A DNA stretch of 32,000 bases from Faecousia sp. GTDB lineage: Bacteria > Bacillota > Clostridia > Oscillospirales > Oscillospiraceae. The translations under genes were made by a program, and so were the position numbers. The DNA is taken from assembly GCA_045654085.1 (NCBI GenBank), contig JAZOMT010000032.1:70182-102181 (forward strand), in the 5' to 3' direction. This document shows, piece after piece, positions 1,981 through 29,375 of the stretch. The notes under the pieces were generated by a model that worked only from the letters and a program-made list of their open reading frames with translations, was not told the origin of the DNA and did not search any database. The first letter of the stretch is position 1. Every line of letters starts with the position of its first letter.

Positions 1981-1994
1981 ATATTCTCCTTAAC

Positions 1995-2015
1995 TAAACG
2001 ATAATTTAGCGGCTT
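1995..2015 (+). repeat. Recombination-site copy A: core TAAACGATAATTTA plus GCGGCTT, reading (L)NDNLAA-stop on the plus strand
   Basis: The 21-mer TAAACGATAATTTAGCGGCTT matches the reverse complement of 4948-4968 with 1 mismatch. It lies just outside the hsdS stop codon, so protein conservation cannot explain it. Confidence 0.8.
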
Positions 2016-3204
2016 AAATTTCGATATTAGATACTTCAATTTCACCGCTCATCAAACGTGGTAGCAGCGAGTCGCGTAGATCCTTCAGTCTTGCATTTTC
2101 CATTGCATTGATACGAATCTGTGCGTACATAGGCGCGACCATGGCGGAGAATGCTGCAATTTCTCCAGCTGTTGGTAGGTAGAATTGATATTGGAGTGTA
2201 TCCGACGGGATTGTTCGCTGACGACTACCTGTCGATCCAGTGACATGGCTGCACATAAAATCGGAAAACGGCACACTGTCGATTAGTGAATACAAGAAAT
2301 CGGTGAGCATGCGCTCCTTAGCTTTGTACACGATGAACTCGGTCGAGCAGACCGCATTATCAGTCATACAATAAGGACGCCATACACGCTTCGTAGTTGG
2401 ATTGAGCTTCGAAATCATAAAGCAATCCGCATCCACAATAAACTTGCTACTCTTGATTGCACTGGACAATTCAAATACGGGATAGCGCATTTCGTCAAAA
2501 GCAGGAATGCTGTAATGTTCCAGCATAGTTTCTGGCTGCTTCAACGGGTTAAAACTTTTGTTGGAGATCACAGCAACATCGCCCAACGAAATAAGTGACC
2601 ACCCATCTGGGGTTGAATCACCATCGCGCAGGCAGAAATACTCCGCAAATAAAGTCTGTGCTTGCTGCTGTAAATTATCGTTTATCTGATTATTATGGGC
2701 TATCTTTTGATCAAGTGCCGCAAGGAAGTTTCCAATCTGTTTCTGCTCTGTCAACGGTGGTACGATCAATTCAAGTTCATCCAAAACACCCTGCTGTACA
2801 CGCTGTCGCCCAGACGATCCTACCATTGATTTAATAGCGATATTCCTAAATGCGGGACTAGTTGCGAGGTAATAAACAAATTGTGGGTCGCTAATTCCTT
2901 CTCTTGCTCGCATTACGATGAATTCGGTTGATCCAAATGCAATTTCTCCATCATCCAGAACATCCACGAATGCGGTCTTGCCGTTTTCAAGGCAGGGTGT
3001 AATTCGTGCCATGATGGTGTCACCATTGCAGAATTTTGAACCTCCTGTAAACTCAGCCTGTTCTGTTGTGGGTATTTTCTTTGTGAATGGCTGGAGCTTA
3101 TCCATGGCGATCTTTGTAGCTACAGCACCTTTTTTTATGCTCAGTCGAGGATTAAATTCCACGAATTCTGCAGCACGGATTGTTCTCCAATTCTCCATGA
3201 TCAT
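2014..3204 (-). CDS. hsdS: Type I R-M specificity subunit HsdS, full length (two target-recognition domains), 396 aa
   Basis: TRD1, then the central conserved helix LTEQKQIGNFLAALDQKIAHNNQINDNLQQQAQTLF, then TRD2, then the C-terminal conserved LKDLRDSLLPRLMSGEIEV. Its start is 6 nt after the recombinase stop. Confidence 0.92.
   Translation of the reverse strand: MIMENWRTIRAAEFVEFNPRLSIKKGAVATKIAMDKLQPFTKKIPTTEQAEFTGGSKFCNGDTIMARITPCLENGKTAFVDVLDDGEIAFGSTEFIVMRAREGISDPQFVYYLATSPAFRNIAIKSMVGSSGRQRVQQGVLDELELIVPPLTEQKQIGNFLAALDQKIAHNNQINDNLQQQAQTLFAEYFCLRDGDSTPDGWSLISLGDVAVISNKSFNPLKQPETMLEHYSIPAFDEMRYPVFELSSAIKSSKFIVDADCFMISKLNPTTKRVWRPYCMTDNAVCSTEFIVYKAKERMLTDFLYSLIDSVPFSDFMCSHVTGSTGSRQRTIPSDTLQYQFYLPTAGEIAAFSAMVAPMYAQIRINAMENARLKDLRDSLLPRLMSGEIEVSNIEI
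2656..2684 (-). repeat. Recombination-site copy B, inside the central conserved region of the full-length hsdS
   Basis: The reverse complement is TAAACGATAATTTACAGCAGCAAGCACAG. It matches 4288-4316 at 27 of 29 positions in inverted orientation. Confidence 0.8.
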
Positions 3205-3210
3205 ACCGTC

Positions 3211-4194
3211 CTATCCGATGTATTTTCTGTGTGCCAGCTTAACATTTTGTTGTTTCACCATTGCATAGTGCATGGTAGTGTCGATTTTCTGGTGCCCCAG
3301 GAGCTGCTGCACCTGCTCAATGGGCATTCCCTTATCAATCGCCGATGTTGCCAAGGTTCTCCGGAACTTGTGCGGGTGCACTTTTGGTATGGATAACCTT
3401 CTGCCCAATTGTCGCAATCGCATCTCCACGCCACCAATCTGCAAGCGATCATATGGTGCCCGCAATGTAACAAAAAGCGCCGGATTACTGTCTTTGCGGC
3501 TATCTAGGTAGTGCTGCAAATGAATTTTGGTCCGGGCATCAAAATACACCAAACGCTCCTTGTTGCCTTTGCCAAACACCACGCACTCCCGGTCATTAAA
3601 ATTGATATCATCCCGGTTGAGCAACACCATTTCACCCACACGCATCCCGGAAGATGCCAGCAAATCGATAATCGCTAAATCCCGCAACGAATCGCAGCTA
3701 TCGCGCATCAGTTCCAAAGCCTCATCCGTATAGGTGTCTTTGATGATCTTTGCTGTCTTGACCTTGTGGATCCTGCGAACAGGACTTTTTACAATATAGT
3801 CCTCATCCTCCAGCCAAGAGTAAAAAGTAGCCAGAATGCGCCGAATATTATCAATCGTCACCTTGCTTGATTTGCGTTTGAGTTGATATGCGGTTAAGTA
3901 CTGCCGGATGTCATCCGTGGTGATCCGTTGCACCGGCTTGCCAATACCCGCCACCATCGCCTCTATGGTTTTACCATAGTAGGATAGCGTTTTTTCTGAG
4001 CATCCCTCTATGCGTTTTGCTGCTATAAATGCAGAAATCATATCTGGCTGCTCTTGTTCGTGCGGATTGTTAGATAGCGTGATTTCTACTCCCTGTAGGC
4101 ATTGCTCTATCGCCATTTGAAGTTTTTGAAGCTGTTCATTGTTGAGGTAAGGCAGCATTTTTTGCTGCACCTCGGCGATTAGTTGTTCTTTCAT
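3211..4194 (-). CDS. Tyrosine site-specific recombinase (XerC/D-like, phage-integrase family), the likely hsdS invertase
   Basis: Contains SSGMRVGEM (first Arg), HPHKFRRTLAT (HxxR), LLGH and TTMHYA (catalytic Tyr). I chose the start at MKEQLIAEV (AAAGGAGAAAAGACA-ATG) rather than the track start at 4266. Confidence 0.9.
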   Translation of the reverse strand: MKEQLIAEVQQKMLPYLNNEQLQKLQMAIEQCLQGVEITLSNNPHEQEQPDMISAFIAAKRIEGCSEKTLSYYGKTIEAMVAGIGKPVQRITTDDIRQYLTAYQLKRKSSKVTIDNIRRILATFYSWLEDEDYIVKSPVRRIHKVKTAKIIKDTYTDEALELMRDSCDSLRDLAIIDLLASSGMRVGEMVLLNRDDINFNDRECVVFGKGNKERLVYFDARTKIHLQHYLDSRKDSNPALFVTLRAPYDRLQIGGVEMRLRQLGRRLSIPKVHPHKFRRTLATSAIDKGMPIEQVQQLLGHQKIDTTMHYAMVKQQNVKLAHRKYIG

Positions 4195-4287
4195 TGTCTT
4201 TTCTCCTTTTCTTTGTAAAAAAGAGAACGACAGCAGTGGCAGTTTCTCTAGTAAAACACCCGCCACTGTGGGTGCTTATTAGAACGG

Positions 4288-4316
4288 TAAACGATAATTT
4301 ACAACAGCAAGCGCAG
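4288..4316 (+). repeat. Recombination-site copy C, at the 5-prime end of the silent hsdS cassette
   Basis: TAAACGATAATTTACAACAGCAAGCGCAG, with the same NDNL codon phase as copies A, B and D. Confidence 0.8.
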
Positions 4317-4949
4317 GCGCTGTATCGCAGTTGGTTTATAGAGTGTACGCCATTTGGCGGGACCGTTCCTGCTAACTGGTGCCGTGGAAAACTGAAGGAT
4401 ATACTCCAGTTGCAAAAACGCGCCATCAAGGCTGGTGCTGCACCAGAATTGCCTTACTTGCCAATCGATACCATACCAATGAAAACTTTTGCGGTATCGG
4501 ATTTCCGTCCCAACGAAGAAGCTCAAAGCAGTTTGATACAGTTCAGCAAGGACGATATCCTAATTGGCGCGATGCGTGTGTACTTCCACCGTGTTATAAT
4601 TGCTCCTTGCGATGGCATCACCCGAACAACCTGCTTCGTTTTGAAGCCCACAAATCACGCATATTTGGGCTTTGGTTTGTTGACATGTGATTTGGACAGC
4701 AGTATTGATCACGCCCAAAACACTTCCAAGGGATCTACCATGCCGTATGCTGTATGGGATGGTGGTATGGGTGAAATTGAAATTGCCATTCCACCTTTAG
4801 AAGTTGCCAAGGAGTTTAACGAATTGGTATTACCCATGCTCCGGCAAATCCAGAACTCATATTTTGAGGTAAAGGCCTTGCGCGAATTGCGTGACAGCCT
4901 GCTTCCTCGACTTATGTCGGGCAATCTGGATGTCAGCGAATGCTTTTAA
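4288..4949 (+). other. Promoterless hsdS C-terminal half cassette (central-helix remnant, TRD2, C-terminal conserved region), inverted relative to the hsdM-linked hsdS
   Basis: Reads (V)NDNLQQQAQALYRSWF...TRD...LRELRDSLLPRLMSGNLDVSECF-stop. No N-terminal TRD, no RBS and no start codon at 4288. The track ORF start at 4194 is antisense to the recombinase leader. Confidence 0.85.
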
Positions 4950-5482
4950 GCAGCTAAATTATCGTTTATTTGCTTATTGACAGCAATCTTCTTATCGATA
5001 GATTCTAATATCTGAGCAATTTTGTCTTGTTCTTTCTCATCGAATAAAGGAATCTGCAAATCCTTTATGTTCTTAAGGCTAATTGTTTTCTGCGTAGAAC
5101 CAACAACCATTTGTTCAATTTGCTGTCGCACAAAAAAGGAACTTAATACATAATACAAATATCTGCTGTTGATTTTAGGAGAAATAATAGCTGTGTTTTG
5201 TCCTAAACAGAACACTTTGCTACTTGCTACATATGAAAAAATACCGTAAGATCCTACTCGGCTAATTATGATATCACCAATTTGCGGTTTGTGCTTTGCA
5301 CTGTATTTTTCATAATCTTCTGCACTAACCATTAAGCAATTTGTAAGATCAAGATCGTCCGCTCGAACATCCGTGACTCTTACCATGGGAATGCCTTTAT
5401 TGCAATACTTAGGAGTTTGGTGTAAAGAGTCAATAACATCGGCAACTTCTGAAAGCTTTATATGTTTGATGTTAGATTGCAT
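4946..5482 (-). CDS. hsdS: Half-length HsdS (single TRD plus central conserved helix), 178 aa, translationally coupled to hsdM
   Basis: Its ATG overlaps the hsdM 3-prime end by 11 nt. It ends DKIAQILESIDKKIAVNKQINDNLAA-stop, inside the motif where a full-length HsdS would continue with QQQAQ. Confidence 0.85.
   Translation of the reverse strand: MQSNIKHIKLSEVADVIDSLHQTPKYCNKGIPMVRVTDVRADDLDLTNCLMVSAEDYEKYSAKHKPQIGDIIISRVGSYGIFSYVASSKVFCLGQNTAIISPKINSRYLYYVLSSFFVRQQIEQMVVGSTQKTISLKNIKDLQIPLFDEKEQDKIAQILESIDKKIAVNKQINDNLAA
4948..4968 (-). repeat. Recombination-site copy D, at the 3-prime end of the half hsdS
   Basis: The reverse complement is TAAACGATAATTTAGCTGCTT. It encodes ...KQINDNLAA-stop. 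Confidence 0.8.
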
Positions 5483-6974
5483 ATCCGATTGCCCCCAGTT
5501 TCTGCCGGATTTCCGCTTCCAGCTTATGGGACTGATCGAACAATTCAGAGAGTTCGCCGGTCAATCGTGCCATTTTCTCTTCAAAGGGCTCACCGTCATC
5601 CTGTTGTTCCTCAATGCCGACATAACGACCGGGGGTGAGGATATAGTCTTGCTTTGCGATTTCTTCTGTAGTTACTACAGCACAGAAGCCCTTCTGATCC
5701 TCCAATGTGCCGTCAGCATAGGAATTATAGGTATCCGCAATCTTTGCAATATCTTCTTCGGCCAGTTCTCGCAGTTTCCGGGTTACCATAGTGCCCATTT
5801 TCCGGGCATCAATAAATAAAGTCTTGCCCGGCTGTTTCTTGTTCTTTGCCAGGAACCACAGAGAAACAGGAATCTGGGTAGTGTAGAACAGCTGGGTAGG
5901 CATTGCAACAATGCACTCCACCAAATCTGCATTGATTATATTTTGCCGGATTTCGCCTTCACCACCGGATTGGGACGAAAGAGAACCATTTGCCAGCACC
6001 ATACCAATCTTGCCATTAGGCGCCAAGTGATGAATCATATGCTGCAGCCACGCAAAGTTGGCGTTGCCGGCAGGAGGCATACCGTACTTCCAACGCACAT
6101 CATCCTTCAGCTTGTCCGCACCCCAATCAGACAGATTAAAGGGAGGATTTGCCAAAATAAAATCGGCACGCAGCGTAGGATGGCAATCGTTGAAGAAGGT
6201 ATCCGCATTGTACTCGCCGAGGTTAGCCTCAATGCCGCGGATCGCCAGGTTCATCTGTGCCATCTTCCAAGTTGTGGGGTTAGAGTCCTGACCGTAGACG
6301 GCAATGCTGTTGATATTGCCGCTATGCCGCTCAATGAACTTTGCAGATTGGACGAACATACCGCCACTACCGCACGCAGGATCGTATACACGACCATTAT
6401 ACGGCTGCAGCACCTCAACCAGCGTACGAACTACGCAAGAAGGTGTATAGAATTCACCAGCCAGCTTGCCTTCCTGCTCTGCGAACTTGGAAAGGCAGTA
6501 TTCGTAAGTCCGACCCAGGATATCTTTTTCACTGCCGTGTTCGATCATTTGGATATTGGTGAATAGATCCACCACATCGCCCAATCTACGCTTGTCCAGT
6601 TCAGGACGAGCAAAGTTCTTGGGCAGAATATCCTTCAGGCGCTTGTTTTCCTTCTCGATTGCACGCATTGCATCATCAATCACAGTGCCAATTTCAGGGG
6701 TATGTGCCTTGGATGCAATCACACTCCAACGGGCAGACGCAGGCACGAAGAAGATGCCTTCAGAGGTGTACTCATCAATATCCTCTTCGAAGCCATCGCC
6801 TTCTGCCAGCAGTTCCTGATACTTTTCCTCGAAGCGATCAGAGATATACTTCAGGAAAATCAAACCCAGTACAACACTCTTGTATTCAGATGCATCAATA
6901 TTGCCACGTAGGACACATGCGGCATCCCAAATTTGTTTTTCAAAACCAATACCGGCTGTATTCTTTTCTGCCAT
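5472..6974 (-). CDS. hsdM: Type I R-M N6-adenine DNA methyltransferase subunit HsdM, 500 aa
   Basis: HsdM N-terminal domain (LRGNIDASEYKSVVLGLIFLKYISD), AdoMet motif VYDPACGSGGMF and catalytic LANPPFNLSDW. Confidence 0.95.
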   Translation of the reverse strand: MAEKNTAGIGFEKQIWDAACVLRGNIDASEYKSVVLGLIFLKYISDRFEEKYQELLAEGDGFEEDIDEYTSEGIFFVPASARWSVIASKAHTPEIGTVIDDAMRAIEKENKRLKDILPKNFARPELDKRRLGDVVDLFTNIQMIEHGSEKDILGRTYEYCLSKFAEQEGKLAGEFYTPSCVVRTLVEVLQPYNGRVYDPACGSGGMFVQSAKFIERHSGNINSIAVYGQDSNPTTWKMAQMNLAIRGIEANLGEYNADTFFNDCHPTLRADFILANPPFNLSDWGADKLKDDVRWKYGMPPAGNANFAWLQHMIHHLAPNGKIGMVLANGSLSSQSGGEGEIRQNIINADLVECIVAMPTQLFYTTQIPVSLWFLAKNKKQPGKTLFIDARKMGTMVTRKLRELAEEDIAKIADTYNSYADGTLEDQKGFCAVVTTEEIAKQDYILTPGRYVGIEEQQDDGEPFEEKMARLTGELSELFDQSHKLEAEIRQKLGAIGYAI

Positions 6975-7635: not shown

Positions 7636-7676
7636 GGACCAGGATGCCGCGAGTTCGAGTCTCGCCACTCGGACCA
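7636..7676 (+). other. tRNA 3-prime-end-like fragment (T-arm, acceptor 3-prime strand, ACCA) with no matching 5-prime half. Possible att remnant.
   Basis: GCGAG-TTCGAGT-CTCGC (7649-7665) is a canonical T stem-loop. It is followed by CACTCGG, then A, then CCA. I found no CCGAGTG partner or anticodon arm in the 350 nt upstream. Confidence 0.45.
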
Positions 7677-7681
7677 AAAAA

Positions 7682-7735
7682 CCGTACGGCGATCAGTTCG
7701 CATTCTACGAACACTGTCGGTCTTTTCTTTGTTTA
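7682..7735 (+). terminator. Imperfect hairpin plus T-rich tail downstream of the tRNA-like fragment
   Basis: GTTCG (7696-7700) pairs with CGAAC (7708-7712), with flanking partial pairing, followed by TCTTTTCTTTGTTT. Confidence 0.35.
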
Positions 7736-13857: not shown

Positions 13858-14388
13858 TTCAGCATACATTGCCCGGATGCCGCCGATGAATTTCGGGCGG
13901 GTGCGGGCGGCGACTACCAAGGCATCGCCAATGCGGTTATTTTCCAATCGAACGGGTACAGCCACTTTCTTCAGATGCATACCAATGAGGGTCAATCCAA
14001 TATCCAGTCCTGCATCGGCAGAAATCTGTTCCACCGCAACGGGATTTTCAAAGGCGGCATAAGCGGCGGTCGCCAGAGAGCCACCAGCTTTGGTCTGAGG
14101 TACTACATTGACGATTTCCGCATTCGGCACGGCAGCGCGCTCTGTAATGATGGCGCGGTTTAAATGCTCACAACACTGGATGGCAAGATAAAAGCCGTTA
14201 TTCTTTGCGCAATCATACAATGCCTTAAAGATATGTCCAGCGGTGTCAGGACTGGAATTTGTTCCGATCTTTGCGCCCAAAACCTCGCTTGTAGAGCAGC
14301 CAACCACCAAGATTTGACCGGGCTTCACCTTTGCCTTTTCAACAAGCTCCTGGGCGGCAGCTTTTGTCTGCTGATAAATTTTCTCCAT
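13846..14388 (-). CDS. TIGR01440-family conserved protein (180 aa)
   Basis: ILVVGCSTSEVLGAKIG, LAIQCCEHLNRA, NVVPQTKAGGS, IGMHLKKVAVPVR and TRPKFIGG match my memory of this family. GGAGG is 7 nt upstream. Confidence 0.8.
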   Translation of the reverse strand: MEKIYQQTKAAAQELVEKAKVKPGQILVVGCSTSEVLGAKIGTNSSPDTAGHIFKALYDCAKNNGFYLAIQCCEHLNRAIITERAAVPNAEIVNVVPQTKAGGSLATAAYAAFENPVAVEQISADAGLDIGLTLIGMHLKKVAVPVRLENNRIGDALVVAARTRPKFIGGIRAMYAEELL

Positions 14389-14508
14389 TTTGATATTCCT
14401 CCGAGATAGGCTGCACTAAGTATAGCACAGACATTCCATTTTTTCACCTATTATTTTTCGCATATTCTTCTTTTGCAAACGCAAACTAAACCAAAAGGAG
14501 TGGTTTAT

Positions 14509-14796
14509 ATGGACGGACACGAACTTGTACGGCAGACCTTAGATCAAATTCCAAAGGCAAATGCCAACGCAAAACGGATTACGGGTCTTGTAAAGGAAGG
14601 CGGCAGAATTACCGGGTATCAGCTATCCGACAATACCATTGTGGCAAAGCAGCAGGCGGTGGATATGGCGCGGCAGGGTCAAATCGCCGGTGTCGGTATT
14701 GCCCACCGTAGAGATACGGAATACCTCAAATCCATCCCCGACGGCAGCGAAAACAACAACCTCGGCAATTTACCTTCCGTATCTCCTCCAAATTGA
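14509..14796 (+). CDS. Small conserved hypothetical protein (DUF3892-like), 95 aa
   Basis: AAGGAG is 8 nt upstream of MDGHELV. The ITGLVKEGGRITGYQLSDNTIVAKQQAVDMARQGQIAGV pattern resembles DUF3892. This is from memory only. Confidence 0.5.
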   Translation: MDGHELVRQTLDQIPKANANAKRITGLVKEGGRITGYQLSDNTIVAKQQAVDMARQGQIAGVGIAHRRDTEYLKSIPDGSENNNLGNLPSVSPPN

Positions 14797-18425: not shown

Positions 18426-18454
18426 TTGACTTGAAAAGGCAAAAGTGGTAGAAT
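18426..18454 (+). promoter_or_regulatory. Promoter of the T-box operon
   Basis: TTGACT (18426-18431), a 17-nt spacer, then TGgTAGAAT (extended -10, hexamer at 18449-18454). Confidence 0.65.
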
Positions 18455-18476
18455 GTGATAAAATATATACACAAAA

Positions 18477-18724
18477 CGCGAGGATGAAAATCAGTATACA
18501 CCCATCCGTTTCTCCAGAGAGCTGCCGGTCGGTGCAAGGCAGTGAAGCTGCGGTGTAGAATTCCTTTCGGAGCGGCTTTGCTGAAATTACAGTAGGCGAA
18601 GACGGGAAAGCCCGATACAGCTTGCGGATCGATTCGATCCCACGAGGCCGCGTATGCGGTAAACTGAGGTGGTACCACAGGAATTTCTTGTCCTCTGCTT
18701 TTGGCAGAGGGCTTTCTATTTATT
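18477..18724 (+). promoter_or_regulatory. T-box leader (tRNA-sensing riboswitch) with terminator/antiterminator. The putative specifier is UUC (Phe).
   Basis: Stem I has a GA/K-turn (CGCGAGGATGA opposite GGAGCG) and AGTA. Helix TACACC (18497-18502) pairs with GGTGTA (18552-18557). The AG bulge is TCCAGAGAG, and the distal loop GGTCGGTGCAA is closed by CTGCC/GGCAG. The specifier-loop 3-prime side is GAA-TTC-C (18558-18564). The T-box sequence is AAACTGAGGTGGTACCACAGG, with the bulge UGGUACC at 18670-18676. The terminator GTCCTCTGC-ttttg-GCAGAGGGC is followed by TTTCTATTT. Confidence 0.8.
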
Positions 18725-18743
18725 CAAACAAAAGGTGATCGCT

Positions 18744-20381
18744 ATGGTAATTACAGACTTTTTGGAACGAAATGCAAGACTTTACGGGCAAGACATTAGT
18801 CTCGTGGAGATCAACCCCTCCGAAGAACGGGACAAAGCCGCCACTTGGTGGGACTTTAACCTGATTGAAAGCGCCAGTCAGGATGCCCCCTACCGTCGGG
18901 AAATGTCCTGGAAAGACTTTGACCGCCGGGCAAACCGCTTTGCAAACCTGCTGCTCAGCCGCGGCTTAAAGCGGGGCACAAAGGTGGCGATTTTGCTTAT
19001 GAACTGTATCGAATGGCTGCCTATTTACTTCGGTATTTTGAAGGCCGGCTGTGTCGCCGTGCCTATGAACTTCCGTTACAGCAGCGACGAAATTCAGTAC
19101 TGCCTGGATTTGGCAGATGTAGAGGTTTTGGTATTTGGACCTGAGTTTATTAGCCGAATGGATGCGGTTGCAGATAGTATCCCCGGTGTAAAAACCCTGT
19201 TCTTCGTAGGTAAAAACGGCCCTCAGTATTCTGAGGACTGTATGTCGCTTCTGCAGTTCTGCTCCTCCAGCGCGCCTCCTGTTGCCCTGTGCGAGACAGA
19301 CGATGCGGCCATCTACTTCTCCTCCGGCACTACCGGCTTTCCGAAGGCCATTTTACATAATCATTTGTCTCTCGTGCACTCCTGCCTGACTGAACAAAAC
19401 CACCACGGACAGAGCCGGGAGGATGTATTCCTCTGCATCCCGCCCCTATACCACACCGGCGCAAAAATGCACTGGTTCGGCTCTCTGCTCTCCGGTTCCA
19501 AGGCCGTGCTGCTGCGGGGTGTAAAACCGGAGTGGATTCTCGGGGCAGTCACCGAGGAGCGCTGCACCATTGTTTGGCTCTTGGTGCCGTGGGCGCAGGA
19601 TCTGCTGGACGCCATTGACGACCACCGTGTTGACCTCTCCAAATTCCGTCTCGATCAGTGGCGGCTGATGCACATCGGCGCCCAGCCCGTACCCCCCAGC
19701 TTAATTCACCGCTGGATGAAGATTTTCCCCCACCACCAGTACGACACCAACTACGGTCTGTCCGAATCCATCGGTCCCGGCTGTGTCCACTTAGGTGTGG
19801 ACAATGTCCATAAAGTTGGCGCCATCGGCAAGCCCGGCTTCGGTTGGGAAACAAAAATTGTGGACGAACACGGTGTTGCGGTAGAAAAGGGCGATGTAGG
19901 CGAGCTGATTGTTCGCGGCGACGGTGTAATGACCTGCTATTATAAAAATCCCGATGCCACCGCAGAGGTACTCCGGGACGGCTGGCTCTTTACCGGCGAT
20001 ATGGCGCGAGAGGACGAGGACGGCTTTATTTACTTAGTAGACCGCAAGAAGGATGTTGTCATCTCCGGCGGTGAGAACCTGTACCCCGTACAAATCGAAG
20101 ATTTCCTGCGCTCCTTCCATAAAATCAAGGACGTGGCGGTTATCGGTCTGCCCGATGCCCGCCTTGGCGAAATTGCTGCAGCCATCATCGAATTGAAAGA
20201 GGGCGAAAGCTGCACCGAAGCAGAAATCGACGAATTCTGCACAGCCCTTCCCCGCTATAAGCGCCCCCGGAAGATCTTCTTTGATAAAGTTCCCCGCAAC
20301 CCCACCGGCAAGATTGAAAAGCCGGTACTGCGTGAAAAGTACTGCCATGGCCGCTTAGTGGAAGTGCAGATCACAGGCTAA
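18744..20381 (+). CDS. AMP-forming acyl-CoA synthetase (ANL superfamily), substrate unknown
   Basis: YFSSGTTGFPKAILHNH (AMP-binding motif), YGLSES, TGDMAREDEDGFIYLVDRKKDVVISGGENLYP and the terminal PRNPTGKIEK. The start MVITDFLERN has AAAGGTGA upstream. Confidence 0.85.
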   Translation: MVITDFLERNARLYGQDISLVEINPSEERDKAATWWDFNLIESASQDAPYRREMSWKDFDRRANRFANLLLSRGLKRGTKVAILLMNCIEWLPIYFGILKAGCVAVPMNFRYSSDEIQYCLDLADVEVLVFGPEFISRMDAVADSIPGVKTLFFVGKNGPQYSEDCMSLLQFCSSSAPPVALCETDDAAIYFSSGTTGFPKAILHNHLSLVHSCLTEQNHHGQSREDVFLCIPPLYHTGAKMHWFGSLLSGSKAVLLRGVKPEWILGAVTEERCTIVWLLVPWAQDLLDAIDDHRVDLSKFRLDQWRLMHIGAQPVPPSLIHRWMKIFPHHQYDTNYGLSESIGPGCVHLGVDNVHKVGAIGKPGFGWETKIVDEHGVAVEKGDVGELIVRGDGVMTCYYKNPDATAEVLRDGWLFTGDMAREDEDGFIYLVDRKKDVVISGGENLYPVQIEDFLRSFHKIKDVAVIGLPDARLGEIAAAIIELKEGESCTEAEIDEFCTALPRYKRPRKIFFDKVPRNPTGKIEKPVLREKYCHGRLVEVQITG

Positions 20382-20405
20382 ACCCCGTATTTTGGAGGAA
20401 TTGAA

Positions 20406-22145
20406 ATGAAAGAGTTAATTTTGGGCAACGAAGCCGTTGCCCGTGGCTTATACGAAGCCGGATGTAGCTTTGTGTCCAGCTATCCCGGCACCCCCAGCAC
20501 AGAAATTACCGAAGCGGTCGCCAAGTATCCTGAGGTCTATGCCGAGTGGGCGCCCAACGAAAAGGTAGCTATGGAAGCCGCCTTTGGCGCATCTTTAGCC
20601 GGTCGTCGGTCTTTTTGCGGTATGAAGCACGTAGGTCTTAACATGGCCGCTGACCCCCTGTTCACCATCTCCTATACCGGTGTCAACGGCGGTATGGTCA
20701 TCGGTGTGGCAGACGATGCGGGCATGCACTCCTCTCAGAACGAACAGGACTCCCGTCATTACGCCCGCGCCGCCAAGATTCCTATGCTGGAGCCTTCTGA
20801 TTCTGCTGAAGCTTTGGCATTTGCCAAGCTGGCCTACGAGCTTTCCGAACAATTCGACACCCCCGTACTTCTTAAAATGTGTACCCGCGTTTCCCACTCT
20901 CAAAGTGTAGTGGAAACCGGTGAACGGGTGGAGTGCGTCAAGGAATATAAGAAGGACATTCCTAAGTATGTTATGATGCCCGGCAACGCAAAGAAGCGCC
21001 ATCCCGTGGTAGAAGCACGGACAAAAGCGCTGATTGCCTATGCTGAGGATGCCGACATCAACCGTGTGGAAGATGGCAATGACCATTCTATCGGCATCAT
21101 CACCTCCTCTACCTCCTACCAGTATGTAAAAGAGGTCTGCGGTGATACTTATCCCGTGCTGAAACTGGGTATGATCTGGCCGCTCCCCGAGGAAAAGATT
21201 CGCAAGTTTGCCGCATCTGTAGACCGTTTGGTGGTCGTGGAAGAGCTGGACGGCTTTATCGAGAGCCATTGCCGGGATTTGGGTCTTTCCTGCACCGGCA
21301 AAGCAGATTTCCCCAACATTGACGAGCTGATGCCCCTGACCGTTGCCGCCAAGCTCTCCGAGACTTGGGAAACCGGTGCAAAGCTCAGTGAAGCCATCCC
21401 CCCCAGACCCCCTGTTATGTGCGCCGGCTGTCCCCACAGAGGTCTGTTCTACACCCTGAAGAAGAATAAAATCACCGTCCTCGGTGGCATCGGCTGCTAT
21501 ACCCTTGGCGCAGTTGCGCCCCTTGCCGCAGTCGACAGCGTGATCTGTATGGGCGCATCCGTCTCCGGCCTCCACGGCTTCTCCAAGTCCCAGCAGGGCG
21601 CCATGGACGGAAATACCGTAGCCGTCATCGGTGACTCCACCTTTATGCACTCCGGCATTACCGGTCTTGTCAATATGGCATACAATGAGTCCAATGCCAC
21701 GGTTATCATCGTGGATAACTCCATCACCGGTATGACCGGTCACCAGCAGAACCCCACCACCGGCTTTAATCTCAAGGGCGACCCCTGCGCCAAGATTGAC
21801 TTGGAGACCCTTTGTAAGGCCGTTGGCATCCGTCGTGTCCGTGTCATTGACCCCTATAATCTTTCTGAGTGCGATGCGGTTATCAAGGAAGAGCTGGCCG
21901 CAAAGGAGCCTTCCGTCATCATCTCCCGCCGTCCCTGCGCGCTATTAAAGTACGTAAAGCACAACAAGCCCCTTTCCGTCGATACAGATAAGTGCGTCGG
22001 CTGCAAGGCCTGTATGAAAATCGGCTGTCCTGCCATCAGCATTGTGGACGGCAAGGCAAAGGTGGACGAAACACTGTGCGTCGGCTGCGGTGTCTGCGAG
22101 CAGCTTTGTAAGTTCGATGCGCTGAGAAGCATCAAGGAGGTCTAA
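20406..22145 (+). CDS. iorA: Indolepyruvate (arylpyruvate):ferredoxin oxidoreductase alpha subunit
   Basis: LILGNEAVARGLYEAGCSFVSSYPGTPSTEI N-terminus, a TPP-binding region GDSTFMHSG, and two C-terminal 4Fe-4S motifs (CVGCKACMKIGCP and CVGCGVCEQLC). Confidence 0.9.
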   Translation: MKELILGNEAVARGLYEAGCSFVSSYPGTPSTEITEAVAKYPEVYAEWAPNEKVAMEAAFGASLAGRRSFCGMKHVGLNMAADPLFTISYTGVNGGMVIGVADDAGMHSSQNEQDSRHYARAAKIPMLEPSDSAEALAFAKLAYELSEQFDTPVLLKMCTRVSHSQSVVETGERVECVKEYKKDIPKYVMMPGNAKKRHPVVEARTKALIAYAEDADINRVEDGNDHSIGIITSSTSYQYVKEVCGDTYPVLKLGMIWPLPEEKIRKFAASVDRLVVVEELDGFIESHCRDLGLSCTGKADFPNIDELMPLTVAAKLSETWETGAKLSEAIPPRPPVMCAGCPHRGLFYTLKKNKITVLGGIGCYTLGAVAPLAAVDSVICMGASVSGLHGFSKSQQGAMDGNTVAVIGDSTFMHSGITGLVNMAYNESNATVIIVDNSITGMTGHQQNPTTGFNLKGDPCAKIDLETLCKAVGIRRVRVIDPYNLSECDAVIKEELAAKEPSVIISRRPCALLKYVKHNKPLSVDTDKCVGCKACMKIGCPAISIVDGKAKVDETLCVGCGVCEQLCKFDALRSIKEV

Positions 22146-22147
22146 GT

Positions 22148-22720
22148 ATGAAAACACAAAATGTTATGATCGTCGGCGTTGGCGGTCAGGGCAGTCTGCT
22201 TGCCTCCAAGCTGCTGGGTCGATTGCTGCTGAGCAAAGGCTATGATATTAAGGTCTCCGAGGTCCACGGTATGAGCCAGCGTGGCGGCAGCGTGGTCACT
22301 TACGTCCGTTTCGGTGACAAGGTCTATTCCCCTGTCATTGACAAGGGGCAGGCTGATTTCATCGTCTCCTTTGAGCTTTTAGAGGCCGCCCGCTGGACGG
22401 AGTACTTAAAGCCCGGTGGAAAGATCATCACGAATACCCAAAAAATCAATCCGATGCCCGTCATCATCGGTGCTGCCGAATATCCCGAAAGCTTGGAAGA
22501 CAAGATGAAAGAAGCCGGTATCGACTTGGACGCGCTGGATGCCTTGACCCTCGCTGAGCAGGCAGGCTCTTCCAAGGCTGTCAACTTGGTCCTGATGGGT
22601 CGTCTTTCCAAGTATTTTGACTTCCCCGAAGAGGAGTGGATGCAGGCCATCGAAGCCAGCGTTCCTCCCAAGTTCTTAGAAATGAACAAAATCGCATTTA
22701 AGCTGGGCGCCAACGCATAA
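22148..22720 (+). CDS. iorB: Indolepyruvate:ferredoxin oxidoreductase beta subunit
   Basis: NVMIVGVGGQGSLLASKLLG...HGMSQRGGSVVTYVRFG, the gamma-domain type of 2-oxoacid oxidoreductases. It starts 2 nt after iorA. Confidence 0.9.
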   Translation: MKTQNVMIVGVGGQGSLLASKLLGRLLLSKGYDIKVSEVHGMSQRGGSVVTYVRFGDKVYSPVIDKGQADFIVSFELLEAARWTEYLKPGGKIITNTQKINPMPVIIGAAEYPESLEDKMKEAGIDLDALDALTLAEQAGSSKAVNLVLMGRLSKYFDFPEEEWMQAIEASVPPKFLEMNKIAFKLGANA

Positions 22721-22734
22721 AGGAGATGGTCACT

Positions 22735-24033
22735 ATGCCCAAGTATTTTCAGCCTGAAATCGAAACCATGCCTTATGACCAGCTTCGGGCGCTCCAAAAT
22801 GAACGCCTCCAAAAGCAGGTGCGCCACGTTTGGGACAATGTTCCCTATTACCGCAAAAAAATGGAGGAAAAAGGCGTTACACCCGAGGATATCCATGGTG
22901 TAGACGACCTTTATAAGCTGCCCTTCCTCTGCAAAGATGACCTGCGGGAGGCCTATCCCTACGGTCTCAAGGGTGCGCCCCTTTCCGACTGTGTCCGCAT
23001 CCACTCCACCTCCGGCACTACCGGTAAGCGGGTGGTTGCCTTCTACACCCAGCACGATATTGACCTGTGGGACGATTGCTGCGCCCGCGCATTGGTCGCC
23101 GCCGGCGCAACCAATGAGGATATTTGTCACATAGCCTACGGCTTCGGTCTTTTCACCGGCGGCGCCGGTCTCAACGGCGGCTCCCATAAGGTAGGCTGCC
23201 TGACGCTGCCTATGTCCTCCGGCAATACCGACCGGCAGCTGCAGTTTATGACAGACCTGGGTTCTACCATTCTCTGCTGCACGCCCTCCTATGCGGCCTA
23301 TCTTGCAGAATCCATCGAGGAGCAAGGTCTCCGTGGTCAGATTAAGCTGAAAGCCGGTATCTTCGGCGCAGAGGCTTGGAGCGAGGATATGCGCCACGAC
23401 ATCGAAAATAAGCTTGGTATTAAAGCATATGATATTTACGGTCTCACCGAGACCTCCGGCCCGGGTGTTGCCTTCGAGTGCAGCGAGCAGACCGGTATGC
23501 ATATCAATGAAGACCACTTTATCGCTGAGATCATCGACCCTGACACAGGCGAGGTGCTGCCCGAAGGCGCTAAGGGCGAGCTGGTATTTACCGCCATCAC
23601 GAAAGAAGCCTTCCCGCTGCTGCGCTACCGCACCCGTGATATTTGCGTACTGACCCGCAAGAAATGCTCCTGCGGCCGCACCCACGTAAAAATGAGCAAG
23701 CCTATGGGTCGCAGTGACGATATGCTGATCATCCGCGGTATCAACGTCTTCCCCTCTCAAATCGAGACAGTTCTTATCCAGCAGGGTTATCCCGCCAATT
23801 ACCAGATTATCGTAGACCGGGTCAACAACTCCGACACCTTTGAGGTTATGGTAGAAATGAATCCCGAGATGTTTTCCGATTCTCTGGCTAAAATTGCCAG
23901 CGCGGAAAAGAAGCTGGTGGAAGCCCTGAAGGCTATGCTGGGCATTGCCGCCAAGGTAAAGCTGGTAGCCCCCAAGTCCATCGCCCGCAGCGAGGGCAAA
24001 GCCGTCCGTGTCATCGACAAGCGTAAACTCTAA
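22735..24033 (+). CDS. paaK: Phenylacetate-CoA ligase family protein (PaaK-like)
   Basis: MPKYFQPEIETMPYDQLRALQNERLQKQVRHVWDNVPYYRKKMEEKGV, IHSTSGTTGKRVV and YGLTETSGPG. The start at 22735 has better spacing from GGAG than 22726. Confidence 0.88.
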   Translation: MPKYFQPEIETMPYDQLRALQNERLQKQVRHVWDNVPYYRKKMEEKGVTPEDIHGVDDLYKLPFLCKDDLREAYPYGLKGAPLSDCVRIHSTSGTTGKRVVAFYTQHDIDLWDDCCARALVAAGATNEDICHIAYGFGLFTGGAGLNGGSHKVGCLTLPMSSGNTDRQLQFMTDLGSTILCCTPSYAAYLAESIEEQGLRGQIKLKAGIFGAEAWSEDMRHDIENKLGIKAYDIYGLTETSGPGVAFECSEQTGMHINEDHFIAEIIDPDTGEVLPEGAKGELVFTAITKEAFPLLRYRTRDICVLTRKKCSCGRTHVKMSKPMGRSDDMLIIRGINVFPSQIETVLIQQGYPANYQIIVDRVNNSDTFEVMVEMNPEMFSDSLAKIASAEKKLVEALKAMLGIAAKVKLVAPKSIARSEGKAVRVIDKRKL

Positions 24034-24045
24034 GGAGGTAACACT

Positions 24046-24477
24046 ATGAGCATTCATCAGATCTCCGTATTTTTGGAAAACCGCACCGGTCAGCTCTCCG
24101 AGATCACCCGTCTCCTTGCAGAAAACCATATTGACATTCGCGCCATCTCCATCGCTGAGACGGCAGACTACGGTCTTGCCCGTATGATTGTGGATGATGC
24201 CCCCAAGGCAAGCAGCATCCTGCTGCAGCACGGTGACATTCTTTCTATGACCCCGGTTTGGGCGGTGGAAGTTCCTGACCGTCCCGCAGGTCTCGCAGAC
24301 CTTTTGGGGGTTCTTGCAGAAAGCCATATCGATGTGGAATATATGTATTCTCTCTTTACCCATCGTGATGGCTGCGCCTATATGGTCCTCCGTGTCTCCG
24401 ATGAGGAAACCTTCGCCGCCGCCCTCTCCGCCCACGGCATCAAGCTTGTCTCCGCCTCCGAACTGGGTCTGAAATAA
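24046..24477 (+). CDS. Stand-alone tandem ACT-domain protein (143 aa)
   Basis: QISVFLENRTGQLSEITRLLAENHIDIRAISIAETADYGLARMIV, and a second repeat AVEVPDRPAGLADLLGVLAESHIDVEYMYS. AAGGAGG lies upstream. Confidence 0.8.
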   Translation: MSIHQISVFLENRTGQLSEITRLLAENHIDIRAISIAETADYGLARMIVDDAPKASSILLQHGDILSMTPVWAVEVPDRPAGLADLLGVLAESHIDVEYMYSLFTHRDGCAYMVLRVSDEETFAAALSAHGIKLVSASELGLK

Positions 24478-24487
24478 CCAACTTACC

Positions 24488-24526
24488 AAAAAAAACACGC
24501 AGTGTAATTTACTGCGTGTTTTTTTC
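24488..24526 (+). terminator. Intrinsic terminator of the T-box operon
   Basis: AAAAAAAACACGCAGT-gtaattt-ACTGCGTGTTTTTTT. Confidence 0.85.
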
Positions 24527-24574
24527 TGCCCGTTATCGGCCTTTATTGGTACATTAAACGGCGATAAAAGGCAT

Positions 24575-24613
24575 AAAAAATCCGGTGCAAACGCACCGGA
24601 TTTATATTTTTTT
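24575..24613. terminator. Bidirectional terminator closing the minus-strand ABC operon
   Basis: TCCGGTGC-aaac-GCACCGGA, flanked by AAAAAA and TTTATATTTTTTT. Confidence 0.8.
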
Positions 24614-27440: not shown

Positions 27441-29375
27441 TTATTTCTCTTGGCTGCTCTTGGGATCGAGAACATCCCGGAGCGTGTCGCCAATAATATT
27501 AATACTGATGGTTGCAAGGGACAGGAAGATGGCGGGGAATACCCACTGCCACCAGTAGTTCTGAATAACGATGGAGTTGTTGGCACCGTCGAGCATATTG
27601 CCCCAGGTGGGCTGAGGTTGCTGAACACCGAAGCCCAGGTAAGACAGGCTGGATTCCGTCAACAGACAGCCGGCAAAGTCCAAAGTAACGTTAACCAAAA
27701 TGATGGAGATAACATTGGGCAAAATATGCTTAAAGGCGATCCGGGTCTCCTTGATACCCATAGACTGTGCGGCAATAACAAATTCCTTTTCACGCTCGGC
27801 AAGCACCTGGGCGCGGATCATTCTGGCAAGGCCAGTCCAGCTTAAGAGACCCAACATAACCATAATAATGAAGATACGGGTAGTCTCGTCAATGGGCTGG
27901 GTACGAATGACAAAGGAAAGCATCATTGCAAAGGGCAGGAACGGAATGGCAGAGAAGATCTCGGTCACACGCATCAGTAGCATATCCACCCAGCCGCCAA
28001 AGTATCCGGAGATGCAGCCAACGATGATGGCAATAATGGTAGAAACGATAACGGCAACTGCGCCGATGGTCATCGTCATCTTGCCGCCGTGAACAATACG
28101 TGTAAATACGTCACGGCCGCTCTTATCCGTACCCATCAGGTAGCCCTTAAAGCCGGCCTTATCCGTCAGATCGTCATTTTCATCCACAAGATAGGTCTGC
28201 TTTGCACCGACAAAGATGTCATCAGCAGTCTTTCCGGTGAGATCGGTCTGGCCGTGGTCATTGTGACCCCAAGACATAACGGTGCCCTTATCGGTCAGCG
28301 CCACAAAGTGACGTGTGCCAGCCTTAACGGAAACGTACTTCTCTCCCTCGGGCGCAGCAGGTACATCCTTTTCGCCATACTGGGCAGCACCCCAGGCTAT
28401 GATACTGCCATCGCTGAGAACAACTGCATAGCAGTTATTCGTAGCCGCAATATCCACAGCAGTCTTACCCTCCAGGTACGCCTTCAGATTTTTAATCGTA
28501 CCGGTGGCGGAGTTGGTAGCAGAAACCATCTGGAAGGACAGCGTAGAACCGCCGGTAACCGTGCCGTCTTCCATCAGCATCAGCGCATAGTAGTTGGTCA
28601 GCGCCACCTTTTGGACGCCGTCAGAAAACTTTTCCGTGACCTCTGGCAGGCTCAGCATAGCATTTTTGTTGCCCCATGCATAGGTAGTGCCGTCTTTCAT
28701 AACTAGAACCGTACACTGGTAACCGCAAACAAGCTGCTGCACTTGATTGGGGTCAATGGTGCCGTACATCAACTCGTCGGGCATCTGAATGTAAGGATCG
28801 TCGGGACTGGCCAGCATACCGTACTGACCGTTGCCGTTATTGCCCCAGCCGACGACCTTACCGTCGGTAGTAATGGCAATAATATGGTCAGAACCGGCAG
28901 CGGCATGGGCAACCTTACCAGGCTGGATTTCAGCGGGGAAATCCGCATAATTGACACGGCTCAGGTTATCCACGGTATTGCCCCAAATATAGAGCGTATT
29001 GTCATTGCTGACACCCACTGTAAAGCCGCCAAAACCGCTGATATCTCGAATATTGTCTTGGAGTTCACTCGGCACCTTCAGAAATGTGTAGTTAGGCGCA
29101 ATGTTTGCCTGGAGCGGGTCTGTATAGTTCAAGTCCATAGGCCAGATTTCCGGGCCGATGAAAACAAACAGGAACAGGCTTACCAGCAAAACCAAAGCAA
29201 CTACTGCTAATTTGCGGCGGAAGAAAGCCTTAACTGCCATTACAGAGGGGCTCTCAATATTCTCAACAGCAAACCTTTCCTCATCGGTCAACTCCTTGCT
29301 TGCGCCAAAGAACATCCGCTTGCCCCAACGGGCAAGAGTAGAAAACACAGTATTCTTTTTTTCTTTATTCGCCAT
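27441..29375 (-). CDS. OppC/DppC-like ABC permease carrying an RCC1-like repeat ectodomain between TM1 and the conserved core (644 aa)
   Basis: TM1 is LAVVALVLLVSLFLFVFIG. Residues ~105-400 hold repeated motifs LYIWGN, VVGWGNNGNGQYG, TYAWGNKN, IIAWGAAQYGEKDVP and VMSWGHNDHGQTDL. The canonical LMGTDKSGRDVFTRIVHGG and the permease core follow. Confidence 0.85.
   Translation of the reverse strand: MANKEKKNTVFSTLARWGKRMFFGASKELTDEERFAVENIESPSVMAVKAFFRRKLAVVALVLLVSLFLFVFIGPEIWPMDLNYTDPLQANIAPNYTFLKVPSELQDNIRDISGFGGFTVGVSNDNTLYIWGNTVDNLSRVNYADFPAEIQPGKVAHAAAGSDHIIAITTDGKVVGWGNNGNGQYGMLASPDDPYIQMPDELMYGTIDPNQVQQLVCGYQCTVLVMKDGTTYAWGNKNAMLSLPEVTEKFSDGVQKVALTNYYALMLMEDGTVTGGSTLSFQMVSATNSATGTIKNLKAYLEGKTAVDIAATNNCYAVVLSDGSIIAWGAAQYGEKDVPAAPEGEKYVSVKAGTRHFVALTDKGTVMSWGHNDHGQTDLTGKTADDIFVGAKQTYLVDENDDLTDKAGFKGYLMGTDKSGRDVFTRIVHGGKMTMTIGAVAVIVSTIIAIIVGCISGYFGGWVDMLLMRVTEIFSAIPFLPFAMMLSFVIRTQPIDETTRIFIIMVMLGLLSWTGLARMIRAQVLAEREKEFVIAAQSMGIKETRIAFKHILPNVISIILVNVTLDFAGCLLTESSLSYLGFGVQQPQPTWGNMLDGANNSIVIQNYWWQWVFPAIFLSLATISINIIGDTLRDVLDPKSSQEK

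Follow-up and report, generated by a model that had tools for sequence, protein, structure and literature searches.

Why should an RNA switch that senses shortage of an aromatic amino acid stand before genes that are annotated for the degradation of aromatic amino acids? The question is raised by a five-gene operon of Faecousia sp., an anaerobe of the gut Oscillospiraceae. The window, by which we mean the whole stretch of 32,000 nucleotides (nt) that was analysed, corresponds to positions 70,182 to 102,181 of the forward strand of contig JAZOMT010000032.1 (assembly GCA_045654085.1). The operon occupies 18426-24613 on its plus strand and consists of a promoter-like site, a T-box leader RNA, a terminator, the genes lig1, iorA, iorB and paaK, a gene for an ACT-domain protein, and a final terminator (Table 1). 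In the present study, we found that homologous T-boxes with specifiers for phenylalanine (Phe) or tyrosine (Tyr) precede related gene clusters in other species, and we consider that the operon probably serves to salvage aromatic amino acids from arylacetates under T-box control.

Judged from its sequence, the leader is a genuine T-box with a Phe (UUC) specifier, as the first-pass annotation of this DNA had also read it. It was the only Rfam match in the window, and it covered the T-box model RF00230 completely (model positions 1-219 of 219) at 132.3 bits, compared with a gathering score of 93 (E=1.8e-29). All of the canonical motifs were found, namely AGUA, the AGAGA bulge, the GGUGCAA distal loop and a specifier loop reading GAA-UUC-C. 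In the glyQS T-box the codon directly follows GAA, and we checked the register of the specifier with a related T-box that lies directly before tyrS at locus L019 (loci of relatives are cited by number), in which GAA-UAC-A occupies the same columns. It is an established rule that the T-box bulge pairs with the free 3' end of the uncharged transfer RNA (tRNA), and the UGGU of the bulge was found here as well. The hairpin of the leader terminator has 10 pairs, 6 of them GC, and a minimum free energy of -22.1 kcal/mol (z=-2.4); the segment CCUC belongs both to its 5' arm and to the antiterminator (3' strand), and the two structures compete. Across 37 leaders (that of the window and 36 relatives), compensatory changes were observed at all 21 base pairs of stem I, and 92.7% of the stem I cells were paired, as against at most 47.6% in slid-partner controls.

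The five genes behind this leader (an ANL synthetase, iorA, iorB, a PaaK-type ligase and an ACT protein) all lie where the first-pass annotation had placed them. The promoter-like site ends 18 nt 5' of the first T-box position; within the window it is the sole promoter-like site 5' of the operon genes, and transcription from it has to pass the T-box terminator. The intergenic gaps measure 2-24 nt, and there is one terminator after the genes, behind the ACT gene. For lig1 we assigned the ATG behind AAAGGTG as the start, because the GTG start at 18669 given in the list of open reading frames falls inside the leader. IorA, the alpha subunit of an indolepyruvate/arylpyruvate:ferredoxin oxidoreductase (IOR), contains the POR_N, TPP_enzyme_C and Fer4 domains, that is, a thiamine pyrophosphate domain and two 4Fe-4S motifs. 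The PaaK-type ligase matches solved phenylacetate-CoA (coenzyme A) ligase chains over its full length (2y27, E=2e-122; 4r1l, E=3e-120); since it scores 505.3 bits against the equivalog model TIGR02155, under the cut-off of 646.3, it is filed here as PaaK-type and not as the aerobic-pathway equivalog. The ACT-pair protein matches structure 2f06 (E=1e-22), which is itself annotated as a conserved hypothetical protein.

Table 1. Coordinates of the features in the window (operon features first, then other loci)
Feature	Position	Strand	Remarks
Promoter-like site, sigma-70-type	18426..18454	+	TTGACT-17 nt-TAGAAT, extended TG; 10/12 hexamer positions matched
T-box leader (stem I, specifier loop, stem II/III region, T-box sequence, antiterminator)	18472..18698	+	Rfam RF00230
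Specifier codon UUC (Phe)	18561..18563	+	context GAA-UUC-C, 3' strand of specifier loop
UGGU of T-box bulge	18670..18673	+	within GAGGUGGUACCAC; complementary to A73-CCA tRNA end; pairing predicted
Leader terminator	18690..18722	+	hairpin GUCCUCUGCU-UUU-GGCAGAGGGC (18690-18712), then U-rich tract
lig1, 545-aa ANL-superfamily AMP-forming acyl-CoA ligase	18744..20381	+	PF00501 3.3e-71, PF13193 3.3e-10
iorA, indolepyruvate/arylpyruvate:ferredoxin oxidoreductase alpha	20406..22145	+	TIGR03336 693.7 bits (cut-off 650.9)
iorB, IOR beta subunit	22148..22720	+	NF005325 280.4 bits (cut-off 230), PF01558
paaK, PaaK-type AMP-forming phenylacetate/arylacetate-CoA ligase	22726..24033	+	PF00501, PF14535 AMP-binding_C_2 (2e-29)
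Stand-alone ACT-domain-pair protein, 143 aa	24046..24477	+	PF19571 ACT_8, 83.6 bits (cut-off 23.5)
Operon terminator	24578..24613	+	strong 11-bp hairpin (24578-24603), then T-rich tract
OppC-type permease with RCC1-like repeats	27441-29375	-	OppC_N, BPD_transp_1
Type I restriction-modification locus	1992-6974		
hsdM	5472-6974		
hsdS	4946-5482		
Phage-type integrase	3211-4266		
Second hsdS	2014-3204		

T-boxes activate their genes in response to uncharged cognate tRNA, and to our knowledge the genes that they control all supply the amino acid concerned, as synthetases, biosynthetic enzymes or importers. The predicted response to uncharged Phe or Tyr tRNA therefore supports an anabolic model. 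The biosynthetic direction is also favoured because both ligases are AMP-forming and the operon contains no enzymes of the ATP-conserving oxidative route; domain and family scans of the operon proteins revealed no kinase, phosphotransacylase or ADP-forming ligase. Which way the flux runs, what the ligases act on and what the ACT protein does are inferred as follows. Transcription would start near 18454 and by default halt at the leader terminator. When tRNA-Phe(GAA) is uncharged, pairing of its anticodon with the UUC specifier, and of the free ACCA end with UGGU, would stabilise the antiterminator, and RNA polymerase would read into lig1-iorA-iorB-paaK-ACT. The two ligases would then turn imported arylacetates into CoA thioesters, with ATP being cleaved to AMP and pyrophosphate (PPi). 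PaaK is predicted to act on phenylacetate, and probably on other arylacetates too, and Lig1 on a second arylacetate, most likely 4-hydroxyphenylacetate. IorAB would reductively carboxylate the thioesters with reduced ferredoxin and CO2 to phenylpyruvate and 4-hydroxyphenylpyruvate, from which a general aminotransferase encoded elsewhere would form Phe and Tyr. The ACT-pair protein is a plausible candidate for a feedback element that binds or senses an amino acid.

Relatives of lig1 were found in at least 598 species-representative genomes. We fetched the lig1 loci of 80 species (68-98% identity), mostly Oscillospirales and Lachnospiraceae of the gut and rumen, Ruminococcus flavefaciens among them; among the matches listed, the closest lig1 record was from a metagenome-assembled genome (MAG) of Faecousia sp. 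(Oscillospiraceae; 96% identity). In 44 of the 80 species lig1 adjoins iorA-iorB, with paaK and the ACT gene usually next; wherever the locus reaches far enough, the ACT gene lies 3' of paaK. Because the order recurs in many species with differing flanking genes, the five-gene arrangement is not a matter of chance. At several loci (L011, L021, L039, L043 and L046) lig1 is the sole ligase gene beside iorAB, and at L011 an aminotransferase gene follows lig1-iorA-iorB. L011 has no T-box, and four tRNA genes (3830-4060 and 7641-7714) are located 5' of its lig1-iorA-iorB-aminotransferase genes, one of them about 290 nt before lig1. At L055, from a Clostridia MAG, an ornate large extremophilic (OLE) RNA (13974-14609; 487 bits) lies directly 3' of the ACT gene of the T-box operon.

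At 31 loci the cluster includes or adjoins a sodium:solute symporter gene (PF00474), which lies either between lig1 and iorA or on one side of lig1 and is sometimes the first gene behind a Tyr T-box. Its product is nearest to PutP and PanF; because it scores far under the cut-offs of both, its cargo could be an amino acid or an aryl acid. A gene of the Amidohydro_2 family (PF04909) also recurs beside lig1 and the symporter gene, at L004 (6757-7911, minus strand), L007, L013, L055 (7184-7999), L061, L028 and L071, where it is either divergent from lig1 or inside a Tyr-T-box operon between the symporter gene and lig1. Its matches in the PDB are weak (3nur and LigW decarboxylases, E>=5e-6), and no copy was found in the window.

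To survey the distribution of the T-box, a covariance model of stem I, made from 29 leaders, was run on the window together with 81 loci (those of the 80 species, plus contig L001), about 1.09 Mb in all. A homologous T-box stands directly before lig1, or before symporter-lig1, at 30 of the 80 species loci, with the specifier UAC (Tyr) at 23 and UUC (Phe) at 7 (Faecousia clade L001-L004, L018, L023, L049). Altogether 32 T-boxes are tied to lig1 or ior genes, 9 with UUC and 23 with UAC, and no non-aromatic specifier was found among them. The whole cluster lies behind a single Tyr T-box in 11 species and behind a single Phe T-box in 5. Two genomes, L008 and L045, have a pair of T-boxes: lig1 stands behind one for Tyr, and iorA-iorB-paaK-ACT immediately behind one for Phe. 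At L008 the iorA-proximal leader scores 107 bits in Rfam and the lig1-proximal one 90.7 bits, at full length. When the leaders were arranged in a neighbour-joining tree, the pair from L008 and likewise the pair from L045 proved to be close paralogues, and the Phe specifiers were scattered among the Tyr ones at five or more separate positions, which points to repeated one-base switches between UAC and UUC and to continued selection for an aromatic tRNA signal. Single-base specifier switching has been described for T-boxes in general. T-boxes are mainly a feature of Firmicutes; four lig1 loci (L033, L036, L039 and L074) were found in MAGs labelled Spirochaetia, Victivallales and Thermoguttaceae, L033 and L036 with full Tyr T-boxes, and these are therefore presumably mis-binned contigs or cases of horizontal transfer.

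The first-pass annotation had proposed a system dedicated to Phe, induced by Phe starvation and making Phe from phenylacetate. Starvation-induced, anabolic salvage is supported by the T-box control, by the aromatic specifiers in all 32 linked T-boxes and by the AMP-forming ligases, but the system is not Phe-specific: lig1 is Tyr-controlled in most of the species with a T-box, and 11 whole clusters stand behind one Tyr T-box, so that the scope had to be widened to Phe and Tyr. The co-occurrence of aromatic T-boxes with the cluster, for which the first-pass annotation had proposed a survey, was borne out for Tyr and Phe in 30 of the 80 species, but the T-box is patchy, and no tryptophan (Trp) T-box with a readable downstream gene was found to precede ior. 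When metagenome contigs were scanned for members of the same T-box family with a UGG (Trp) specifier, 11 of 13 matches were true GAA-UGG T-boxes. Where the downstream gene is readable, these Trp T-boxes (L082-L094) mostly precede a gene for a TrpB2-like pyridoxal phosphate enzyme of about 459 aa, and at L086 an ATP-binding cassette (ABC) transporter gene; ior, paaK and lig1 were never found behind the Trp T-boxes of the metagenome contigs. A branch from indoleacetate to Trp under T-box control was thus unsupported, and the genes downstream suggest that in these communities Trp may be salvaged from indole rather than from indoleacetate.

Since lig1 is for the most part under Tyr control and is physically linked to iorAB, Lig1 is predicted to make CoA thioesters of 4-hydroxyphenylacetate or of arylacetates in general. 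On a wider view, which we put forward tentatively and hold to be possible rather than probable, the leaders may constitute one salvage regulon in Oscillospirales of the gut and rumen and their relatives, built on one paralogous T-box lineage with UAC or UUC specifiers. Tyr starvation would induce lig1, as a 4-hydroxyphenylacetate-CoA ligase of a new ANL family, together with a Na-coupled arylacetate importer, Phe starvation would induce IorAB-PaaK-ACT, and Phe and Tyr would be rebuilt from arylacetates that amino acid fermenters nearby excrete.

Several observations weigh against salvage as the function of the operon. Aminotransferase, ferredoxin and transporter genes were not found in the operon of the window. 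The base after the specifier (18564) is C, whereas in canonical T-boxes this position is usually a conserved purine; about half of the present T-box family, Phe and Tyr members alike, have C, and the rest have A. No column of the lig1 alignment was found that separates Phe- from Tyr-regulated copies, the differences tracking phylogeny, and there is therefore no case for a change of substrate alongside the specifier switch. No T-box was detected at about 46 of about 76 loci with enough upstream sequence; at nine T-box-less loci checked for hidden divergent members, none was present at the Rfam gathering threshold, and the upstream gaps were mostly shorter than 250 nt. Since the T-box is missing in most of the assessable species, starvation induction is not universal for the cluster, and other regulation must exist there. 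Furthermore, IOR reactions are reversible. In Bacteroides, IOR contributes to the production of phenylacetate from Phe, according to work cited in PMC13285125. These last points would suit enzymes that work in both directions, IorAB mainly oxidising arylpyruvates in fermentation and only occasionally running in reverse, with the T-box as a starvation layer added in some lineages. We consider this explanation unlikely, since the operon combines two AMP-forming ligases with no ATP-conserving oxidative step, since transcription from the sole promoter-like site of the window that precedes the genes has to pass the T-box terminator, and since the specifiers have stayed aromatic throughout the repeated switches. 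A dedicated catabolic operon is very improbable. In that case Phe would be converted to phenylpyruvate, phenylacetyl-CoA and finally phenylacetate, and the ligases would run backwards, gaining ATP from AMP and PPi, for which there is a reported precedent among AMP-forming ligases of syntrophic bacteria; a catabolic role is also what databases assign to iorAB and paaK by default. However, a switch triggered by uncharged tRNA-Phe or tRNA-Tyr would then destroy the scarce amino acid, every linked T-box has an aromatic specifier, and we know of no T-box that controls the degradation of its own amino acid.

The remaining doubt concerns Lig1, whose assignment is the weakest step of the salvage model because PaaK-type enzymes already take 4-hydroxyphenylacetate, in addition to phenylacetate and indoleacetate (PMC13285125). 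The closest solved structures of Lig1 are FadD13 and FadD5, which are fatty-acyl enzymes, and feruloyl-CoA synthetase, and this too counts against an arylacetate substrate. Lig1 reached no NCBIfam subfamily cut-off; the best model was PRK06187, at 401 bits versus a cut-off of 476, and the others fell far below theirs. If Lig1 were to activate another acid, whether akin to Tyr or not, such as hydroxyphenylpropionate, hydroxycinnamate or a fatty acid, for some other need when aromatic amino acids are scarce, only PaaK would feed IorAB. Such a role would also fit the loci at which lig1 stands alone behind a Tyr T-box (L033, L036 and L053) and the uncharacterised Amidohydro_2 gene that recurs beside it. 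We nevertheless regard it as improbable, because lig1 directly adjoins iorA in 44 of the 80 species and is the sole ligase gene beside iorAB at the five loci mentioned above. Salvage from arylacetates, with Lig1 as an arylacetate ligase, thus remains our preferred explanation.

How does the operon compare with known systems? Phe is said to be formed from phenylacetate in rumen physiology (Allison, 1965), and Tyr and Trp reportedly arise from their arylacetates (Kristensen, 1974). Two precedents named by the first-pass annotation were located in print. Rumen cultures form Phe from phenylacetate (PMC7356843), and in Methanococcus maripaludis aryl acids feed the synthesis of aromatic amino acids via IOR, as shown genetically by Porat et al. 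(cited in PMC4162585). The archaeal route, as described there, involves the same IorAB family and the same proposed sequence from aryl acid through aryl-CoA and arylpyruvate to the amino acid. In contrast, the present operon is bacterial, has a tRNA-sensing RNA, two different ligases and an ACT-pair protein, and its function is predicted from its genes. The cluster of Bacteroides has the iorA-iorB-paaK order seen here, and structure 4r1l, noted above, matches our PaaK-type ligase; the IOR-linked AMP-forming ligase was assayed as an arylacetate-CoA ligase, and a biosynthetic role was suggested on the ligase type alone (2026, PMC13285125). Unlike that cluster as described in PMC13285125, where no RNA switch is mentioned, the present one has a T-box and lig1 and, in relatives, the symporter gene. 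The idea of an anabolic IOR with an AMP-forming arylacetate ligase is therefore already in print, for methanogens (PMC4162585) and for Bacteroides (PMC13285125), and the novelty that the first-pass annotation had seen in it must be tempered.

The oxidative clostridial route, which is induced by tyrosine, employs either a phosphotransacylase together with a kinase or an ADP-forming ligase (PMC13285125). The HpdDEFG clusters of Clostridium scatologenes and C. difficile share with the present operon the chemistry of a 2-oxoacid:ferredoxin oxidoreductase that handles arylpyruvates and arylacetyl-CoA (PMC13285125), but they conserve ATP through Pta-/Ack-like enzymes or an ADP-forming ligase, whereas the present operon has AMP-forming ligases only and a switch for uncharged tRNA. 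The PaaK of the aerobic phenylacetate catabolon (TIGR02155, 2y27) has the same fold and the same pair of domains, PF00501 and PF14535, as the ligase found here. Because the equivalog cut-off was missed, the neighbourhood lacks paaABCDE ring-oxygenase genes and the host is an anaerobe, a role of the present ligase in assimilation rather than in ring degradation is suggested. A Geobacter genome paper counts iorAB-paaK among the genes of tryptophan biosynthesis and gives them a conserved 5' sequence (PMC2700814). Compared with the RF00230 T-boxes of synthetase, biosynthesis and transporter genes in Firmicutes, the present leader has the same architecture and the same termination/antitermination design, and its specifier and UGGU fit tRNA-Phe; it differs in its targets, which are iorAB and two acyl-CoA ligases, annotated for degradation, in place of shikimate or prephenate pathway genes, a synthetase or a lone transporter, and its family differs in often having C, rather than a purine, after the codon. 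In the literature searched, we found no link of a T-box to iorAB or paaK, no dual Tyr/Phe T-boxes and no function for lig1, although the Vitreschak 2008 survey or RegPrecise may list a T-box-ior link. Within that literature, T-box control of iorAB/paaK and the dual Tyr/Phe arrangement are apparently new.

Elsewhere in the window, the upstream neighbour of the operon is a divergent nitroreductase-like gene, and downstream there is a convergent Opp-type peptide ABC transporter. In the product of an OppC-type permease gene, inserted RCC1-like beta-propeller repeats separate the N-terminal transmembrane segment from the permease core, which is an unusual pairing of domains for the permease of a peptide transporter. 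The Type I restriction-modification locus contains two pairs of inverted repeats of 27-29 nt (1992-2018/4945-4971 and 2656-2684/4288-4316) with the common motif TAAACGATAATTTA; by its layout, the locus resembles a recombinase-driven, phase-variable hsdS shufflon.

The gut and the rumen are rich in phenylacetate and 4-hydroxyphenylacetate, precursors of phenylacetylglutamine and p-cresol, which are relevant to the host. Metagenomic studies now count iorAB and paaK as producers of these two acids. If the operon is expressed only when the cell is short of Phe or Tyr, and arylacetates are consumed, iorAB and paaK in Oscillospiraceae would mark a sink and not a source. The reading of iorAB/paaK gene counts would then change, and there would be a cross-feeding link from amino acid fermenters to fibre degraders. 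That phenylacetate is a precursor of Phe in the rumen was observed in the 1960s; on the wider view set out above, the T-box-controlled genes would give this observation a genetic and regulatory basis, and iorAB in these taxa would have to be re-annotated as anabolic.

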